Made by a program: the position numbers and the translations under genes | Part shown: in pieces, positions 45,404 through 60,724 of the stretch | Numbering within the stretch: position 1 is the stretch's first letter | How the letters are laid out: every line of letters begins with the position of its first letter | Virus record (IMG/VR): IMGVR_UViG_3300021961_005592 | Span: 51,210 to 115,209 of that record | Length of the DNA: 64,000 nt | Strand: one strand, 5' to 3' | Origin: a virus | The notes under the pieces: generated by a model | Databases searched by the model: none | Told to the model about the DNA's origin: nothing | The model's input: only the letters and a program-made list of their open reading frames with translations

Positions 45404-46276
45404 TTAGGTACCCCAGGCGTTTCCAAAGATGTCGACATGTAGGCGGGGCGTATATCTCCATCCTCGCTCCATTGCGAGGTTTGCAACCCGCTTGGTGTTT
45501 TCGTGGTAGAGTCCGTCTTTCCCACCAACCGGCATAACAAAGACCGTACACTCGATCCCAGCCGCTCTATACTCTGATACTGCTCTTCCAACCTCATCCA
45601 CGTCCACATCATCACTAACCACAAACTTGAGATAAAGGTCGCTATTAGGAATATCGTAGTAAGACCGAACAATGCTAGGCTTAATAGCATCATTCCAAGA
45701 CTCTCCCGAAACGGAAAGTTTCGGTGAACAGGAAAAGGTGAATCGTATAGCTCTCTGACTTTCGAGGTAATCTCGAAACTCTCCTTTGAGCTCTTGCGTA
45801 GAATTTGTCTCAAAAGTGACATTTTTTAAATCTCCCATGCGTGGATGTGTTAATAAATCTTTCCAGAATCTCTGCCATCCTAGCAAAGGTTCGCCACCAG
45901 TAATAACTAAATGGACGTCTTGTCCATTGTCCATTGTCCATTTGCCTTCTGGTGTTAGTGACAACAAATGGTCAATTACTTCTTCTACAGTTCTATCCAT
46001 CATATATTTTTTAAACTCTGGATAGATACTTGCGTAAGTATCACAACCTGTACCAATAATAGGAAGGTCGTTAAATTTTTCAATAGTGTTTAGTTTACCG
46101 CTGTCAAGCAAATCTTTAACTTCTGCATTGTATTTGCCAGTTACAGTACCTCTAGGCAAACCAAAGTTCATACAACGGAAGTTACACCCAAAGGTACGTA
46201 GAAACACACTAGGTGCTCCTACAAACTTGCCTTCGCCTTGCACACTATAAAATGCTTCTGAATATCTTAACTTCAT
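45404..46276 (-). CDS. queE: 7-carboxy-7-deazaguanine synthase (radical SAM)
   Basis: E.FYSVQGEG...G.PSVFLR..GCN..C ... GCDT, ITGGEP, ETN, SPK, PRLH; adjacent to folE. Confidence 0.9.
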   Translation of the reverse strand: MKLRYSEAFYSVQGEGKFVGAPSVFLRTFGCNFRCMNFGLPRGTVTGKYNAEVKDLLDSGKLNTIEKFNDLPIIGTGCDTYASIYPEFKKYMMDRTVEEVIDHLLSLTPEGKWTMDNGQDVHLVITGGEPLLGWQRFWKDLLTHPRMGDLKNVTFETNSTQELKGEFRDYLESQRAIRFTFSCSPKLSVSGESWNDAIKPSIVRSYYDIPNSDLYLKFVVSDDVDVDEVGRAVSEYRAAGIECTVFVMPVGGKDGLYHENTKRVANLAMERGWRYTPRLHVDIFGNAWGT

Positions 46277-46959
46277 CGTGGTGCAAACTCCTGTTGTAAT
46301 TTAATGTTGTCAAAGAACTCTTTCTTTGTACCTGGGTCATCCTTGAACGCACCTTTTAGTACTGTGGTCTGTGTAAGCGAACTATGCGCCATAATGCCGC
46401 GATTCTCACAACAACCATGTGTTGCTTGTACATATACACCTAAATGTTTTGCATTAGTTGCTAGTCGAATCTGCTTTGCAATTTCATTTGCAAGTTCTTC
46501 TTGCAGTGTACCGCGTCTAGCACACCATTGTGCAATACGTGTGTACTTAGATAGACCAATAAGTTTTTCTGCGGCAATAATACCAATGTATGCTACACCT
46601 GTAACAGGCTGGTGATGATGGGAACACATGCTCTTTAGTTCTGAACGAACTACTAGCATACCTTCATAACGTTCATCGCTGTCGTTTGGGAATGCTGTTG
46701 CACTAGGAATAGGATCATAACGTCCTGCCATAATCTCATTAAAGTACATTTTAGCAAGTCGTTTTGCAGTACCTTTAGAGTTTGGATCGTTATGGCGATC
46801 AATAACAAGTGCATCTAGCACATTTTCAAATGCTTCTGTTGCTTCTTTGATTAGTTCTTCTTTGTCGCCCTTTTGTAGGATTTTTGAAATATTGTCGCCA
46901 GCCCAATAACGAATGCCAGCTTCTTCTAGTTTACACCTAATTTGTAATGATTTGCTCAT
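46273..46959 (-). CDS. folE: GTP cyclohydrolase I
   Basis: T.KR.AK, SMCSHH, IGLSK..R, LQE, H.C...RG; ATG 46959 after SD GGAGA. Confidence 0.95.
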   Translation of the reverse strand: MSKSLQIRCKLEEAGIRYWAGDNISKILQKGDKEELIKEATEAFENVLDALVIDRHNDPNSKGTAKRLAKMYFNEIMAGRYDPIPSATAFPNDSDERYEGMLVVRSELKSMCSHHHQPVTGVAYIGIIAAEKLIGLSKYTRIAQWCARRGTLQEELANEIAKQIRLATNAKHLGVYVQATHGCCENRGIMAHSSLTQTTVLKGAFKDDPGTKKEFFDNIKLQQEFAPR

Positions 46960-46966
46960 CAATGTT

Positions 46967-46995
46967 TTTCTCCGATGTTAAGGCAGTGGATTGCC
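46967..46995 (-). promoter_or_regulatory. Candidate structured RNA leader of folE (hairpin or pseudoknot over the SD)
   Basis: GGCA-AUCCAC-UGCC-UUAACAUC-GGAGA; loop UCC can pair with SD GGA. Confidence 0.5.
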
Positions 46996-47002
46996 ATGTT
47001 TA

Positions 47003-47057
47003 ATGGTACAATGTTTCTTTATAGTTACATTGTACCATATATTTAGGTTTTTGTCAA
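47003..47057 (-). promoter_or_regulatory. Sigma70 promoter of folE with nested TAAATA and a 12-bp inverted repeat over the -10
   Basis: TTGACA(47057-47052)-N17-TACAAT(47034-47029); IR 47003-47014 / 47027-47038. Confidence 0.75.
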
Positions 47058-47060
47058 GTA

Positions 47061-47678
47061 TTATTTGCTAATTTTATTTTTCAAATAAGATAGCAACACA
47101 CCGTATGCTGGTAGGAACACTACCAATCCTACGACCATCTTGGTAATGGTCTGGTTAAACGCAACGTCAGCTACCCAAGGTTGCGGATAGAATGCTGTGT
47201 AGAAAAATGCATAAGTGTCAATAAAGTTTGCCGCAATGGTTGAAATTGCTGGTGCTGCCCACCATGCTTCTGTAAATCTGTCACGAATGTGCTGGAATAC
47301 ATAAACATCAAGCATTGTGCCTACGCCGTATGCTACACCACTTGCTGCACCAATACGTAGTGCCTTTTCCATTGGAGCACCACCGCCCCATACAACCAAA
47401 ATACTTGCAACGATTGCAGGAATTACTGCTAACGCAACTACACGTCTGCCGGCTTCCTTTCCTAGCAAGCGAACAGTTAAGTCAGTAGCAACGACTACAA
47501 GAGGAAAAGTAAAAGCTGCTGCCGCTAGTGGAAACTCCCCAAAGAATGGTAAGTTAGCACCTGGAAACAGATTAAACTTAAATTGTACTAGATAATTGCT
47601 AATAGCAATAACTAGCGTATGTAGTATAACAAGATTGCGAATAAGCGTCTTGTCAACTCCCGATAAAATATTAGACAT
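47061..47678 (-). CDS. yhhQ: Queuosine-precursor (preQ0/preQ1) transporter, VUT family
   Basis: I..SNYLVQ, FTFP....TDLTVR..G...R, RI..AS, LDV.VF..R, WW.AP..ST....DT..F; next to folE. Confidence 0.88.
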   Translation of the reverse strand: MSNILSGVDKTLIRNLVILHTLVIAISNYLVQFKFNLFPGANLPFFGEFPLAAAAFTFPLVVVATDLTVRLLGKEAGRRVVALAVIPAIVASILVVWGGGAPMEKALRIGAASGVAYGVGTMLDVYVFQHIRDRFTEAWWAAPAISTIAANFIDTYAFFYTAFYPQPWVADVAFNQTITKMVVGLVVFLPAYGVLLSYLKNKISK

Positions 47679-48036
47679 TTGTTATTTCCTTTCTATAATT
47701 TCCCTTCTCGGGTATTACGTGTCTAACGCCACCTCGCGGATCTTCCATATCTCCTTGTCTGCGAGGAATTAAGTGTACATGGGCATACATGACAGTTTGT
47801 CCTGCTGCCTCACCTACATTCTGACCGATATTGAACGCATCACAATAACCACGTTCAACCCAGTCATAGCCCCACTTGTAAGCAGCTTCCCAGCATTTTA
47901 CCATGTGTTGCCAATCTTCAACCTTTGGTACAAAAAGAACATGTCCTTCTGTAACAGGAAATCCGTCTTTGTAGACGGTAAAATCCTTAGTGTCTATTAA
48001 AACATCCGTCCACGGTATATCTTTAAATTCCATCAT
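47671..48036 (-). CDS. HIT family nucleotide hydrolase
   Basis: D..PVT.GH.L.VPK, NIGQN.G..AGQTV, HVHLIPR; ATGA-coupled start 48036. Confidence 0.88.
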   Translation of the reverse strand: MMEFKDIPWTDVLIDTKDFTVYKDGFPVTEGHVLFVPKVEDWQHMVKCWEAAYKWGYDWVERGYCDAFNIGQNVGEAAGQTVMYAHVHLIPRRQGDMEDPRGGVRHVIPEKGNYRKEITNV

Positions 48037-48590
48037 TGCCCAACCACTTCCCAAGGATACACTAGCCAAACATCTTCTTCTGCTTTGTTTACTTCGTGTG
48101 CATGATACCGAACACCTTCAAACGAACTAGATAGATTTTCTGTTAGTACGGCAAAACGAACATTTTCTCTCCATACACTAGCCCAGCCATGTTCTTCTTT
48201 AGGTAAACAACTGCTTTGCCAATCTTCTTTGATCCAATTAAATGTTGCACCTGTGTCGTTGATATCATCCACAATAAGAATATTTTTACGTTTGTTATTA
48301 TCCCAACGGCATTTGTATGTGGCTTGTTCCTCTAGAGGAACATAACCAAACGCATCTTCTGCCATCCAACAATTGCTTTCGCAATCACCTTCTTTGTCAT
48401 CACGCAAACTAACCTTTAGTGCTTCACCTCTAACACCTAGCATATTACAAAGGATAGTAGCGGGAACATTTCCGCCTTTGGTAATACCTACAATATAGTC
48501 AGGACGCCAGTTGTCAGCATACATTTGTAGAGCAATGTTTACGCACATCTTTTCTACATCTTGCCAACTATAATGATGTTTCTTAATCAT
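48033..48590 (-). CDS. Type I phosphoribosyltransferase (purine PRT-like)
   Basis: VGIT.GG..PA, PRPP loop ILIVDDINDTGAT, W.VYPWE. Confidence 0.85.
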   Translation of the reverse strand: MIKKHHYSWQDVEKMCVNIALQMYADNWRPDYIVGITKGGNVPATILCNMLGVRGEALKVSLRDDKEGDCESNCWMAEDAFGYVPLEEQATYKCRWDNNKRKNILIVDDINDTGATFNWIKEDWQSSCLPKEEHGWASVWRENVRFAVLTENLSSSFEGVRYHAHEVNKAEEDVWLVYPWEVVGQ

Positions 48591-52422: not shown

Positions 52423-52628
52423 TCTAGATCCAATTGTACAAGTTTAGAGTTTATCCTGTGTATTTCGTCTTTCAAATAAAGTTTCATAGTCTTCATTCTA
52501 CGAACTTCATCTGAAACAGTAACATTATGATAGCGTACTTCTAGTTCGTTGTCAAGCTCTTTATGACGTCGTTCCAATTCTGCTAGGTGGGCACGAAGTT
52601 TATCTGCTTCGTTTTCATAGTTGCTCAT
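52419..52628 (-). CDS. DUF465/YdcH-like coiled-coil protein
   Basis: L...H.ELD ... K..KL.LKDEI; ATG 52628. Confidence 0.65.
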   Translation of the reverse strand: MSNYENEADKLRAHLAELERRHKELDNELEVRYHNVTVSDEVRRMKTMKLYLKDEIHRINSKLVQLDLE

Positions 52629-54144
52629 CCTCAAGTTCCTCCAATTTTGTTTCATCAAAAGTGTCTTCGACTTCTTCTACAGTTTCTTCAACTTCAAAAA
52701 GAGAATCAAAGAACGTACTAGCATTTACAGTCTTTTTACCAACTGCACCTCTAGTACCAGGAATAGCCATGTAAAAACGACTATGTTCATCAACTAATTT
52801 TAATGCCTTGTCACGGTCATCTGTTGCAAATATTTCTTCCACAACGTCTCTAAAAAGAACCCTATCAAACCGTTCTTGTACAAGCATGTTAGGAATTCTT
52901 CCTGCGTCATACTGTCTATTTGCTTCTTGGACTGCATTTATGTGACTCCAAACGTTATGACCCATCTGAATAGCATATGAAAAACTATCCCACGATGTTT
53001 TACCTTCTTTACCAATCTTGTTTAAGTCTCCTGGTGCATATATGCATACATCTGAGACTTTTAGTTGCTCAGTAATTGGACTATCTTCAAAGTTTTTAAA
53101 GATGCCATCCTGTAATACTGCATCACGGAATAAGCGTTGATCTGTTGCATACTTCTTGTTGTCAACGCTTGGAACCATTCGATAGGTCCATTTGCCACGA
53201 TCAGGTGTTTCATTTTGAATGTAGATCTGTCCATTAGCAGTTGCTAAGAACGGACTTGCACAGTCAAATGTAACCATAAAGTTTTCATTATGGTGTTTGC
53301 GAACAGCACGTTGAATGTCCGTAAGCAAACAAGCCCACTCTAGTTTACTTGTACCTAGGAAGTGCATACAGTCCTGTACACCTTTCTCTAACAAGCCGTC
53401 ATAGCGCAGTGCAATGATACGCTTCAGCACCAAGTGAACGTCACACATGTTCTGTCCGCCCATTGCCCACCCGTTGAAGTGAACGCCTGGATACTGCTTT
53501 GGATCAGAATACTTTTTCATACGCTGATACCAATCTTCAGCGTCTGCGTGATTTTCACCCTGTAGAACGTTTAAGAACTTACAGTTGCCATTACGGTTGT
53601 TAATAAACCAATCGTTGTTGATGTAAGTACCTTGAACTGCTTCAGAGTAGGAAGTAATGCCAGTTGCTTTTTGTCCAGCAGGTGAACGAGCGACCCAGGC
53701 AGGAATATCAAGGATCATTCCATAGTCCATATAGGCATCCATCCACGCAAGAACTTGTTCACGTTTCTTTTGTGCCTTAGGACAGTTTGGATCTTTCCAG
53801 TCGCCTTCCCAAACGCCTTTGCCAATCTGGAAGCCGCCTGAGTCTCCTAAGATCCAACTTGTATTCCTGTTACGATTTCGTACCATGTCTTCTTTAGGAC
53901 TGTGCTTATTAATATCAAGCTCTGCGTGTCCTGCAGAATATAAAGTCCAATGATAGTTGAAAAGCCCCTTACTTGGATCTAGGTAATTAAGACTCTCAAC
54001 GTCATTAATAAAGTTTGAAGGAATACGGGCCGGGTCTACATAATTATCGAAACGTTGTTTACCTACATAAGTAGCATAGAAACCACTTAGTGCAGGTAAA
54101 AAGTGTGCGTAATCGTTTTGTGTAGATGTTAGGTCTTTATTCAT
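52615..54144 (-). CDS. dpdA: TGT-fold guanine transglycosylase, probably DNA-directed (DpdA-like)
   Basis: DSGGFQ, LD.P, VLQG, A.GG, HFLG, FDC.SP; lacks the CxCxxC Zn site of bacterial tRNA TGT; que-gene context. Confidence 0.7.
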   Translation of the reverse strand: MNKDLTSTQNDYAHFLPALSGFYATYVGKQRFDNYVDPARIPSNFINDVESLNYLDPSKGLFNYHWTLYSAGHAELDINKHSPKEDMVRNRNRNTSWILGDSGGFQIGKGVWEGDWKDPNCPKAQKKREQVLAWMDAYMDYGMILDIPAWVARSPAGQKATGITSYSEAVQGTYINNDWFINNRNGNCKFLNVLQGENHADAEDWYQRMKKYSDPKQYPGVHFNGWAMGGQNMCDVHLVLKRIIALRYDGLLEKGVQDCMHFLGTSKLEWACLLTDIQRAVRKHHNENFMVTFDCASPFLATANGQIYIQNETPDRGKWTYRMVPSVDNKKYATDQRLFRDAVLQDGIFKNFEDSPITEQLKVSDVCIYAPGDLNKIGKEGKTSWDSFSYAIQMGHNVWSHINAVQEANRQYDAGRIPNMLVQERFDRVLFRDVVEEIFATDDRDKALKLVDEHSRFYMAIPGTRGAVGKKTVNASTFFDSLFEVEETVEEVEDTFDETKLEELEDEQL

Positions 54145-57408: not shown

Positions 57409-60105
57409 TTAGTCTCCAAAGTCAAACAAACTTGAAAATGTGTTGTGTTGTTTTGTATCACCTAGGTCATACTCTAGCACACCAATCAAGTTGTCTAACT
57501 TATTATCAATAATTGTTTCTTCCATTGCTGCATCATCAAATGGAAGTTCTTTAAACCACTCTGGTAAACGGAGTTCATCTGTTGGATAAGCAACACTTGT
57601 ATACCCTATCGGGTTTTGTTTAAGTTTGCAAACAATAACTTTCATACCGTCTACAATCTCTTGCGAATACTTGTCACCGTTCATGCGTTTTAGAGTATTC
57701 CAATTGATAGCAGCTCTTACGTGCCCGGGCATGTTTGCTTTGCCTTGCTTTTGTTCTAGTCGTTGGTAATGACCAATCTTGTTAGCACGTTTGGGAGAGC
57801 CCTTTTCGTAGCCGGGCCGTTCTTTAAACTCTTGACGGAATTTAGTAATACGTTCAATTACTTCTTTTTCTTCCTTACCGGTTAGAACCATTAGCAGAAC
57901 TTCTGACAAAAACTCCTGCATAAACACAGGTGTGTCCGAACGACGCAAGTCCAAACCCATAGCCTTTACTTTTCCTGGCTTACCGTCTGTATCGTTACGG
58001 AAACCTTCCGTATCATATACCAGCGCCGCATAACGCTTCTTGGTAATATACAACCCTGACTCTGCAACAATTTCACGTCCTGCTGCAATTACTTCTGCAC
58101 GAGTTTTTGGACAGTGAAATGCCTTTCCCATAAATTCTTGGAATGTGCTGTTTGCTTCTTCACAAACTTGATCATAAAGTGTGATAACATTTTCTTTAGT
58201 CCAAGGCAAACGTCCTGCGTCAATATCATCTTGTAGTGTAGTATATGCACTAAAATAAACTGAGTCAGTATCACCGTAGATAACTGCTTTACCTACGTGG
58301 TCATATGTGCCTGTAATAATTTCATTTACCTTAGCAGCCATGTGCTTGGCAATTTGTCTACCAGTAAGGGTAGTTGACTGTCCAATACGTTTATCAAAAA
58401 ATCTGCAACCAGGGTTAAGAATAGCACCATACAAACTGTTAAGGTTAATTTTCTTAACCAACTGGCGTTTGTCCCAGAACGCAACCTCTGTAGCATTACC
58501 TGCCTCCTTGGCTTTCTTTAACATCTTTTGTAGATCTTTACGTTCAGCATACCAACGTTTTAGAATACCCGGAATAACGCCTTCAAATTCTGTTGTAAAG
58601 ATTGTGCCGTTTGCACTAAGCATCCATGGCATGTGACTGTCAAAGATGAGTTTATTTATTTCTGCGCCGCTTAGGACGTCAGAGCGACCGTCTTCCCAGT
58701 CAATAGTTATAGCAACGTCTTTACGTTTATCTATAACAGCTTCGTATTCTTCAGAACCAAAACGTCCTTCCCATGAATTTGCAAAAGACATCTTTTTTAG
58801 TGTTGTGTCTTCGTAAATACGTGCGTCAGTTAACTCTTGACGCAGTTGACCTACAATAGTTTCGGGGGCCATGTTTAATGCGCGAATCACAGACGGATAC
58901 AGTGAGTTCAAGTCCATTGAACCAATCCATTTATGAACACCTTTTTTAGGAAAAGCTACATATGCGCCAGCCGCTTGAGTATTTTCATCCTCATTTCGTT
59001 TAGGACGATTAGGAACTTGCAAACCTCGATAGTGTGCTTCGTTAATAATTGCTTGCTCTGTAACCGCAACAGCACCCATAGTCGTTTGTAGCAATACTGT
59101 GTTTGCGTGTGCAAGTTCGTTACTTAGATCAATAAAACGCAGTTTCTTATCTAGTTTATCTAGTAGTGCAACGTCTTGTCTGTTATATTCAATAAATGTC
59201 TCAAAGTCCTTGTTGTATAATTGATCAAGTGTACCTTCGTAAACAGTTTTACGTTCACCCACTTCTAGTTCACCAATAGCATCTAATCGGTATGTATGAC
59301 GTTCTTCATAGGTGTACTTACGATATAATTCAAGACTGTCTAGATGAACACGCCCAACAAGGTCATATGTTTCACTTTGTTTGCCAAATTTTTCGTATTC
59401 TCGTTTTTTAGGCATTTGATCCCAAAGACAAAAACGTCTTGTGTCGTCATTGCTTAGTACACGTTTAACACGGTTAACAGTGTAAGGTATATCATAACCT
59501 TCGCTGTTCCAGCCACTAATAACATCAGCGTCTTCGATTAAATCAAGGAACGCTTGTAACATTTGACGTTCGCCGTTGCCATCTGAGTCGTTAGGGAATA
59601 GAATAACACTATCTCCCCACTTAGCTCGACATATTTCTTTTGCTTGATCAAAAGGTAAGCCTTTTGGTGGAACTGCGACTGTAATAAGAGCATCCATCCA
59701 TTGTAAACATACTGTGATAGCAGTAATTGGCATAAAAGGATCTTCAACAGGAGCAAAACCTCGCTCAGGATCAAAGTCTGTTTCAATATCCCAGAATGCA
59801 ATGTTTAGTTTTGGTGCATCTTGATTAAGATAGTTTTCGCTTAGACATTGAAAGATTGGATTAATATCGCTCTCAAATAACTGCTTATCTCTATTGATAG
59901 CTATTTCTTTTCGAAAGTCTTTTGTACTCTTAGTAACAATACGTGAGAGCGGATCACCATACACGCTCTTGTATTTTCCTTTAAGGTCTTTATAGTAAAA
60001 AGTGTATTTGACAGGGTATTCTGTAAAACGTCTTTTTCCGTCCTTACGTTCTACGACTCTAATAATGTCAGAGTCTCTATCAAAAATTGCATCTACGTAA
60101 CTCAT
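57409..60105 (-). CDS. Family B DNA polymerase (gp43-like) with 3'-5' exonuclease
   Basis: DIET, GWN...YD, YN..D exonuclease motifs; DLNSLYPS, K...NSLYG, YGDTDS, KKRY. Confidence 0.97.
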   Translation of the reverse strand: MSYVDAIFDRDSDIIRVVERKDGKRRFTEYPVKYTFYYKDLKGKYKSVYGDPLSRIVTKSTKDFRKEIAINRDKQLFESDINPIFQCLSENYLNQDAPKLNIAFWDIETDFDPERGFAPVEDPFMPITAITVCLQWMDALITVAVPPKGLPFDQAKEICRAKWGDSVILFPNDSDGNGERQMLQAFLDLIEDADVISGWNSEGYDIPYTVNRVKRVLSNDDTRRFCLWDQMPKKREYEKFGKQSETYDLVGRVHLDSLELYRKYTYEERHTYRLDAIGELEVGERKTVYEGTLDQLYNKDFETFIEYNRQDVALLDKLDKKLRFIDLSNELAHANTVLLQTTMGAVAVTEQAIINEAHYRGLQVPNRPKRNEDENTQAAGAYVAFPKKGVHKWIGSMDLNSLYPSVIRALNMAPETIVGQLRQELTDARIYEDTTLKKMSFANSWEGRFGSEEYEAVIDKRKDVAITIDWEDGRSDVLSGAEINKLIFDSHMPWMLSANGTIFTTEFEGVIPGILKRWYAERKDLQKMLKKAKEAGNATEVAFWDKRQLVKKINLNSLYGAILNPGCRFFDKRIGQSTTLTGRQIAKHMAAKVNEIITGTYDHVGKAVIYGDTDSVYFSAYTTLQDDIDAGRLPWTKENVITLYDQVCEEANSTFQEFMGKAFHCPKTRAEVIAAGREIVAESGLYITKKRYAALVYDTEGFRNDTDGKPGKVKAMGLDLRRSDTPVFMQEFLSEVLLMVLTGKEEKEVIERITKFRQEFKERPGYEKGSPKRANKIGHYQRLEQKQGKANMPGHVRAAINWNTLKRMNGDKYSQEIVDGMKVIVCKLKQNPIGYTSVAYPTDELRLPEWFKELPFDDAAMEETIIDNKLDNLIGVLEYDLGDTKQHNTFSSLFDFGD

Positions 60106-60110
60106 CTGTT

Positions 60111-60162
60111 CTCCTCGTTGTTAAAGGCCAACGCTTGCCTGCTACATGTCCGTAAAGTGGAC
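60111..60162 (-). promoter_or_regulatory. Structured leader of DNA polymerase: hairpin plus H-type pseudoknot abutting the SD
   Basis: GUCC-ACUUUAC-GGAC, then S1 AGGC/GCCU and S2 CGUUG/CAACG immediately followed by AGGAG. Confidence 0.65.
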
Positions 60163-60695: not shown

Positions 60696-60724
60696 AGTAT
60701 AAAGGATATTTAGAAAAAAGTCAA
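60696..60724 (-). promoter_or_regulatory. Sigma70 promoter with nested TAAATA
   Basis: TTGACT-tttttcTAAATAtcctt-TATACT (N17). Confidence 0.7.

Follow-up and report, generated by a model that had tools for sequence, protein, structure and literature searches.

Leader RNAs of the closest known kinds

Type III is the smallest subgroup of the preQ1-I riboswitches, with a short pyrimidine-rich loop and a second helix, P2, that is formed with the Shine-Dalgarno (SD) sequence itself (PMC10622847, PMC11625349). In preQ1-I RNAs the specificity cytosine is directly 5′ of the 3′ strand of P1 and is preceded by U in type I and by A in types II and III (PMC11625349), and L3 is A-rich, with 4–5 conserved adenines immediately 5′ of P2 (PMC10622847). 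The type III examples relevant here are the yhhQ leaders of E. coli and Shigella. The label ‘folE motif’ already belongs to another RNA, the THF-II riboswitch of alpha-proteobacteria, which consists of one longer hairpin interrupted by internal loops, is bacterial and binds folates. As to phages, we know of few riboswitch classes that are restricted to them.

Phage leaders also have a protein-based precedent. The loop of the T4 and RB69 gp43 operators is 8 nt. These operators are hairpins of 18 (T4) and 16 (RB69) bases, upstream of and overlapping the ribosome-binding site, through which gp43 represses its own translation, and their loops hold UAAC (PMC3014915). In T4 gene 32, a leader pseudoknot of the H-type serves autogenous repression as well (PMC3014915, PMC535899). 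How do two leaders of an uncultured giant phage, one in front of folE and the other in front of its DNA polymerase gene, compare with these?

The locus and its relatives

The window, i.e., the whole 64-kb stretch of DNA analysed, makes up the final 64 kb of an IMG/VR contig of 115 kb, which is itself estimated to cover about one third of the genome of a giant phage, and both leaders, those of folE and polB, are on its − strand. The family B polymerase is 43–50% identical to that of Sinorhizobium phage Phosso, Agrobacterium phage Atu_ph07 and the 121Q group. A search of cultured phages for close DNA relatives found none; those that come nearest are Sinorhizobium phage Phosso, Rhizobium phage RHph_I1_18 and Vibrio phage 2.275.O, and folE of RHph_I1_18, like that of phage NCTB, has no leader. 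Comparison was with IMG/VR, from which FolE-guided searches gave at least 80 loci each (FolE identity 75–90%) and the polymerase gave at least 80 loci (polymerases 80–88% identical). Relatives of the folE leader furnished one covariance model, R1, and relatives of the pol leader two, R2 and R3, with which five phage records, among them one complete 357-kb genome, were scanned. Within the window itself 60 leaders were compared with each other, as 1770 pairs, by Smith-Waterman local alignment.

The folE transcription unit and its neighbours

As read from sequence, the folE unit has a sigma-70-type promoter at 47029–47057 (−), with TTGACA at 47057–47052, a 17-nt spacer and TACAAT at 47034–47029; the RNA is predicted to start downstream of it, at about 47022–47024, and TTGACA-AAAACCTAAATA-...-TATAAT is at the same site in most of the folE relatives. 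The leader, ...AUGGCAAUCCACUGCCUUAACAUCGGAGAAAAACAUUGAUG, is followed by folE, the gene for GTP cyclohydrolase I (46273–46959, −; Pfam PF01227, GTP_cyclohydroI, E 2e-38), whose start, as in relatives by start alignment, is the ATG at 46959 (MSK...). Directly downstream in the same unit is a probable queE, for 7-carboxy-7-deazaguanine synthase (45404–46276, −). NCBIfam QueE models match it with E 5e-11 to 4e-7, every one under its cut-off, and the gene is also 3′ of folE in relatives. Upstream of the promoter, and beyond the control of the motif, is a gene for a YhhQ-type transporter of the queuosine precursors preQ0/preQ1 (47061–47678, −; TIGR00697, 92.7 bits for a cut-off of 50.95; NF008406, E 2.5e-41; Pfam Vut_1), and 5′ of it are genes for a HIT-family hydrolase and a purine-type phosphoribosyltransferase (the three within 47061–48590). 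A QueD gene is elsewhere in related genomes. Pfam searches of the contig and four related records, one of them complete, found no QueC and no recognisable TGT or DpdA; at the thresholds used, neither Pfam nor PHROG matches a 509-aa protein encoded at 52615–54144, for which a distant fold is possible. Because a phosphoribosyltransferase, a HIT protein and YhhQ are encoded upstream and QueC, TGT and DpdA were not found, the modified base may be supplied by a nucleotide-level route and not by base exchange in DNA. Preceding folE in a set of 7-deazaguanine genes, the leader motif would be expected to control the entry step of the pathway.

The promoter region has features of its own. The spacer AAAACCTAAATA after TTGACA (47040–47057) has a 79% DNA match to an unannotated part of Pseudoalteromonas phage J2-1, and a weaker copy of it, TTGACTTTTTTCTAAATA, is at 60707–60724, upstream of the small ORFs that precede polB. 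A perfect 12-nt inverted repeat, ATGGTACAATGT / ACATTGTACCAT, is at 47003–47014 and 47027–47038, with the −10 box of folE in its left arm. Many relatives have it at the same site with compensating letters (GTGTATACT/AGTATACAC, GGTATACT/AGTATACC) and others do not have it. It could form solely in DNA or in RNA reading through from upstream.

A conserved structured element in front of folE

Within the folE leader (46995–46965, −) the string GGCAATCCACTGCCTTAACATCGGAGAA occupies 46995–46968. Its hairpin, P1 (46982–46995, −), pairs GGCA (46995–46992) with UGCC (46985–46982) across the 6-nt loop AUCCAC (46991–46986); the tail UUAACAUC (46981–46974) follows and then the SD, GGAG (46973–46970), tail and SD together spanning 46970–46981. 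Relatives keep the same order of blocks: a 4–5 bp stem encloses the loop AUCCNC, and its return strand is followed by a tail WAAC(A)UC and GGAG, with the start codon 7–9 nt further on. This is the single block kept, and the rest of the leader varies freely.

The stem is conserved as a structure. In an alignment of 52 sequences, five P1 pairs have changed on both sides (88 cells) and none of 500 shuffles reaches the score; 91% is paired in the true P1 register versus 26–49% in slid-register controls. The inner stem takes at least 12 different forms in 59 unique copies, and the compensating versions of P1 include GGCA/UGCC, AGAC/GUCU, UGAC/GUCA, UGUC/GACA, CGAC/GUCG, GGUC/GACC, CCCA/UGGG, AGGG/CCCU and others, with G·U pairs that are consistent with the sense strand only. 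The unpaired part is nearly invariant. The loop is AUCCAC in 34 of the unique copies, AUCCUC in 20 and AUCCCC in 5, its variable place never being G; AAC, U, C and GGAG are invariant across 51 relatives, and 14 unpaired positions in all are invariant. The closing pair of P1 tracks the length of the tail, being A-U in 11 of 11 copies with AACAUC and C-G in 43 of 43 with AACUC, an association that is expected of a tail lying in the groove of the stem and that could alternatively be due to shared descent. Folding of single sequences is not significant (z −0.2 to −1.2), and the structural support is the covariation in relatives. Judged by such comparison the element in front of folE is truly a structured RNA under conservation.

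The proposed second helix, P2, would involve the SD. GGA of the SD (46973–46971) is complementary to the loop UCC (46990–46988, −), and the two are complementary in 51 of 52 copies; as the partners never vary, P2 gives no covariation signal, and conservation of GGAG would be expected anyway because it is the ribosome-binding site. At least 80 further loci around a divergent variant (L123) were sampled for variants informative about P2, and gave only degenerate or lost copies. We infer P2 from this complementarity.

How widespread is the element? R1 has one strong match in each of the five phage records (42–48 bits) and nothing besides. In a pattern scan of IMG/VR, among the matches listed (80 loci), folE follows in all 56 for which there is a stem and the DNA downstream can be read, usually with queE next after it, and the 22 listed without a stem are chance matches in unrelated DNA. 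In IMG/VR and metagenomes together, copies of the element exceed 600. A few relatives have a degenerate motif or none. A scan of cellular genomes, one per species for 185,579 prokaryote species and with the commonest stem version (GAC/GUC) only, gave five chance matches within GC-rich genes and one true copy, on a phage-like contig. From these scans the element appears as specific to folE in one clade of uncultured aquatic giant phages. The contig with the true copy, JBDNIA010000152.1 (L471; 5.5 kb), has been binned to a Crocinitomicaceae MAG and carries a type B folE motif with a folE of phage type. Probably it is a piece of phage DNA, and as a hint of the host it is weak at most.

Is it a preQ1-I riboswitch?

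No Rfam family matches the window at gathering score, and at E ≤ 10 there is no relevant match in the folE leader (type A), in a type B relative or in the pol leader. The Rfam PreQ1 model specifically (RF00522, family cut-off 39 bits) has no match at E ≤ 10 in the type A leader of the window or in one type B leader. The match to a known family that would have removed the novelty proposed at the outset was found for neither leader. On design, the comparison drawn in the original prediction with compact preQ1-I pseudoknots is apt as an analogy for folE, the closest being type III (PMC10622847), to whose E. coli and Shigella yhhQ leaders the element would correspond as a tiny H-type leader pseudoknot. 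P1 is within the 4–6 bp range, and is backed by covariation. The loop, as in type III, is short, pyrimidine-rich and complementary to GG(A) of the SD. The last base of the loop, which adjoins the return strand of P1, is C in 51 of 51 aligned copies, and in the 59 unique copies its 5′ neighbour is mostly A (34), otherwise U (20) or C (5). The linker starts UUAA or AUAA, as in type III. Like preQ1-I, the element also adjoins 7-deazaguanine genes: it is always in front of folE, usually with queE following, and YhhQ is next door.

There are, however, clear departures. The loop is, as had been pointed out, shorter, 6 nt versus about 9 in type III, and it opens with AU (A invariant, U nearly so), unlike the conserved U or UU of preQ1-I L1 that contacts the ligand. 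The tail WAAC(A)UC has two invariant adenines, with C(A)UC between them and GGA, and is without the 4–5 adenines of preQ1-I. The base adjoining P2 is C where preQ1-I has A; the proposed P2 pairs run in the opposite order, with C-G beside the stem in the folE motif where type III has U-A; and a one-nt L1 spanning a 3-bp P2 may be strained. The gene context differs too, phage folE as against gamma-proteobacterial yhhQ. On paper, then, the element resembles preQ1-I, and by the tests made it cannot be counted as a member of that family. With THF-II it has in common that it would be a cis-regulatory RNA specifically 5′ of folE; THF-II is longer, and Rfam gave no match here.

Other leaders of the pathway deserve mention. 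The folE leader of Vibrio phage 2.275.O (MG592671.1; L176:914–944), a cultured giant phage at a greater distance than the IMG/VR relatives, aligns to the Rfam PreQ1 model with 12.5 bits against the cut-off of 39. It has the stem UGCGG/CCGCA and the tail UUAAAAAAACUA, and is possibly an unannotated divergent preQ1-I riboswitch. In two related giant-phage genomes the queD leaders (L474, G001:C1:269400–270900, −; L475, G003:C1:30000–31300) have a third element in common, with a stem GUGG/CCAC in one and, compensating, GAGG/CCUC in the other, a loop ..GACGCUCAYC, and a tail CUAAAUACUCUGCGUGUC able to pair with GACGC of the loop; it is a candidate for another leader knot on a 7-deazaguanine gene. 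The 2.275.O alignment and the queD knot are both compatible with metabolite sensing in this phage group.

The polymerase leader pseudoknot

The polymerase gene (57409–60105, −) encodes a family B DNA polymerase of T4/RB69 gp43 type, with Pfam DNA_pol_B and exonuclease domains, and its nearest solved structures are those of RB69 gp43 (E 7e-62, almost end to end) and T4 gp43. It is preceded by ...GUCCACUUUACGGACAUGUAGCAGGCAAGCGUUGGCCUUUAACAACGAGGAGAACAGAUG, and its leader (60139–60109, −) bears GGCAAGCGTTGGCCTTTAACAACGAGGAGAA. An H-type pseudoknot can be drawn at 60116–60140 (−), in which S1 pairs AGGC (60140–60137) with GCCU (60128–60125) and S2 pairs CGUUG (60133–60129) with CAACG (60120–60116), with AAG as L1 and UUAA as L3. 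The 3′ end of S2 abuts the polB SD, read from sequence as AGGAG at 60111–60115 (−). Upstream is a hairpin, P0 (60148–60162, −; GUCC-ACUUUAC-GGAC), followed by a conserved AUGUAG, and its stem compensates among relatives (GUCC/GGAC, GCUC/GAGC, GUUC/GAAC, GCCC/GGGC).

In most relatives P0 is followed by AUGUAGAAGG-UUAA-GUUG-GCC-AUAAG-CAAC-GA-AGGAG (consensus GGUUAAGUUGGCCAUAAGCAAC), and one lineage has GCGA/UCGC for GUUG/CAAC, which amounts to three compensating changes. A sister clade, with polymerases about 70% identical, has two units in tandem about 85 nt 5′ of polB (L307–L386, e.g., L307:1435–1491), each with a covarying helix of its own: UGAUCA/UGAUCA, GCGG/CCGC, UGCCA/UGGCA, UGCGA/UCGCA, UGUGA/UCACA, UGCAA/UUGCA, UGUCU/AGACA and more. 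The tandem arrangement suggests cooperative binding. Altogether 116 unique leaders gave 138 units, each with GGY, 0–3 nt and a helix of 4–7 bp closing the 8-nt loop RCC-NNAAR, and among these units, which were chosen by four complementary pairs so that the percentage paired is partly built in, there are more than 30 different S2 helix sequences. In an ungapped alignment of 51 units five S2 pairs covary, with 94 cells changed on both sides and none of 500 shuffles as high, and no unit has a mismatch at the third pair of GGY:RCC, where U·G (127 units) is commoner than C-G (9) or U-A (2). All this fits an H-type pseudoknot in which the upstream GGY would pair with RCC of the loop and the second stem would end at the SD. 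R2 and R3 match pol leaders only, in the window and in the five genomes, and the pseudoknot precedes the T4/RB69-type polymerase only.

There are points of likeness to the T4 and RB69 operators: the leader of a gp43-type gene, a 4–5 bp stem with an 8-nt loop (16–18 nt) and a place abutting the ribosome-binding site. The size of the hairpin fits, and the loop letters, RCC-NNAAR (AUAAA, AUAAG, ACAAG...), partly fit UAAC/UAAA. However, a review reports no pseudoknot in T4 (PMC3014915), and here the upstream GGY can pair with RCC; moreover, the sister clade has the unit in tandem. As a likely H-type pseudoknot that precedes a replication gene it also recalls that of T4 gene 32, which differs in sequence, in sizes, in its far-upstream position and in serving a single-strand-binding protein (PMC3014915, PMC535899). 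A polymerase of gp43 type combined with a hairpin of operator-like size makes autogenous repression the most likely function, and by this analogy the leader is probably an autogenous translational operator bound by its own polymerase.

One motif or two?

The original prediction was that the two leaders have one motif in common and hence one ligand or one protein. Its letters are right. The quoted folE and pol strings are exact in the sequence, both leaders have GGC/GCC stems, and UCC:GGA in folE and CGUUG:CAACG in pol are complementary as claimed; moreover GGCAA-N6-GCCT-(N)-TAACA is at these two sites only in the whole 115-kb contig. What does not survive is the idea that the two are alike beyond chance. 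As 45-nt leaders they score 26, which puts 26 of the 1770 pairs ahead of them in rank (27th place), and with a score of 24 another leader comes close to pol as partner of folE; much of the alignment is the SD. A looser pattern search finds 2 matches versus 0.39 expected, and 7 of 100 shuffles reach 2. The letters they have in common, GGCAA and GCCTTTAACA, are absent from the pol consensus of relatives, and GGCAA and GCCUUUAACA are peculiar to the window phage and its nearest kin. The ‘6-nt variable insert’ turns out, in folE, to be AUCCNC, the most conserved part.

The models do not cross over either. R1 scores the folE leader at 47 bits and, with filters off, has no match at E ≤ 10 in the pol leader of the window; nor does it match any of 100 pol leaders of relatives, and R2 and R3 have no match on the folE leader. 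Fixed and variable parts are reversed, stem 1 varying in folE with loop and tail fixed, and GGY/RCC being fixed in pol with stem 2 varying. The two are also separable, as in one relative the pol knot is present and the folE leader is without its motif. In the five genomes no extra copies of either motif, which would be the sign of a regulon, were found. By these comparisons the leaders are two different RNA families, and what makes them look alike in the window is generic: each has a GC stem, a linker rich in A and a strong SD. So while one system is not upheld, the description ‘candidate new riboswitch or translational operator’ is credible for each leader taken singly, both being conserved, beside the SD, without an Rfam match and covarying in relatives, as had been proposed as a check, with 0 of 500 shuffles each.

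What the two leaders may do

The reading we prefer, and hold with evenly balanced confidence, is of two unrelated cis-regulatory RNAs, a preQ1-I-like OFF riboswitch for folE and a self-repression site for pol. Most likely the folE element, of about 26 nt, would fold into a small H-type pseudoknot with (U)CC of the loop paired to GG(A) of the SD; the invariant C at the end of the loop, next to the return strand of the stem, would be paired by a base of 7-deazaguanine type (preQ0, preQ1 or CDG); and by stabilising the knot this base would block ribosome binding to the folE-queE message, i.e., translational OFF control. Whether the element senses a ligand at all we put at about an even chance, with a protein operator as the main rival. 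That it is a phage-only new riboswitch class or subtype, with the smallest known aptamer and a 7-deazaguanine ligand that is possibly other than preQ1 (CDG, preQ0) because the phage encodes FolE, QueD and QueE but not QueC or QueF, is a more specific proposal, which we offer tentatively, as conceivable and rather doubtful. On the pol side, the pseudoknot abutting the SD would be the site at which the gp43-type polymerase represses its own translation.

If true, much follows. A ~26-nt aptamer that folds onto its own SD would be near the lower size limit of ligand-sensing RNA and would be a compact, portable regulatory part, and should the base sensed be a 7-deazaguanine the phage would have feedback control of the first step in supplying its modified DNA base. 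With the pol knot, polymerase self-repression as known from T4 would reach distant giant phages, in a form that is pseudoknotted and sometimes tandem. With folE, queD and the tandem pol knot together, small leader RNAs would be the main means by which the clade controls its genes for DNA modification and replication. The folE and pol leaders are separate targets rather than a single regulon, and both are short enough for synthetic RNA.

Could a protein do instead what is attributed above to a metabolite? By recognising the loop AUCCNC together with the tail AAC..UC, a phage or host RNA-binding protein would block the SD, with the RNA sensing no metabolite. A motif on one pathway gene in one phage clade fits such an operator just as well, since a conserved-loop hairpin beside the SD, in single copy, gene-specific and confined to one clade, has its counterparts in T4 gp43, gp32 and RegA (PMC3014915); the failure of the PreQ1 model on the folE motif and the lack of covariation in P2 are also in its favour. 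However, there is no candidate protein, the motif has type III traits (C before the P1 3′ strand, an SD-complementary pyrimidine loop, the link to 7-deazaguanine), and the second, different small knot on queD in related genomes is more easily understood by metabolite sensing, so that we consider the protein operator unlikely. Distinctly more improbable is a folE hairpin that is constitutive, serving mRNA stability or a fixed level of translation with no switching at all. It is true that 5′-proximal hairpins often stabilise bacterial and phage mRNAs, and the modest folding energy of the single sequence is also in favour of such a role; but a constitutive hairpin needs no invariant loop or tail, and here it is 14 unpaired positions that are fixed and the stem letters that are free.

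The original suggestion that one factor, possibly the polymerase, binds both leaders and so couples the supply of modified base to replication has in its favour that both can be drawn in one topology: a stem, a loop that pairs downstream, an A-rich linker with UAA, and the SD. T4-type polymerases bind RNA loops with UAAC, UAAA or CAAC (PMC3014915), with which the invariant (U/A)AAC of the folE tail and NNAAR of the pol loop may be compared. However, in folE, unlike in a gp43 operator, the UAAC is outside the hairpin loop, which is the 6-nt AUCCNC, and the leader is that of another gene. The conserved positions differ, AUCCNC and AAC.UC as against GGY, RCC and AAR, and the lack of any cross-match in the window, the five genomes and the 100 pol leaders, the chance-level similarity in the window and the genome with a pol knot and no folE motif all tell against a common factor, which is very unlikely. 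Two separate RNAs, one for each gene, are thus still the reading preferred here.

Another leader pair in the window

The best-scoring of the window leader pairs, with a score of 42, is formed by those before 38161 and 62738 (−), which have ATAAATAC(.)TATATAAAG in common 5′ of the SD. These shared letters may be a promoter motif of TATAAATA type, for middle or late phage transcription.
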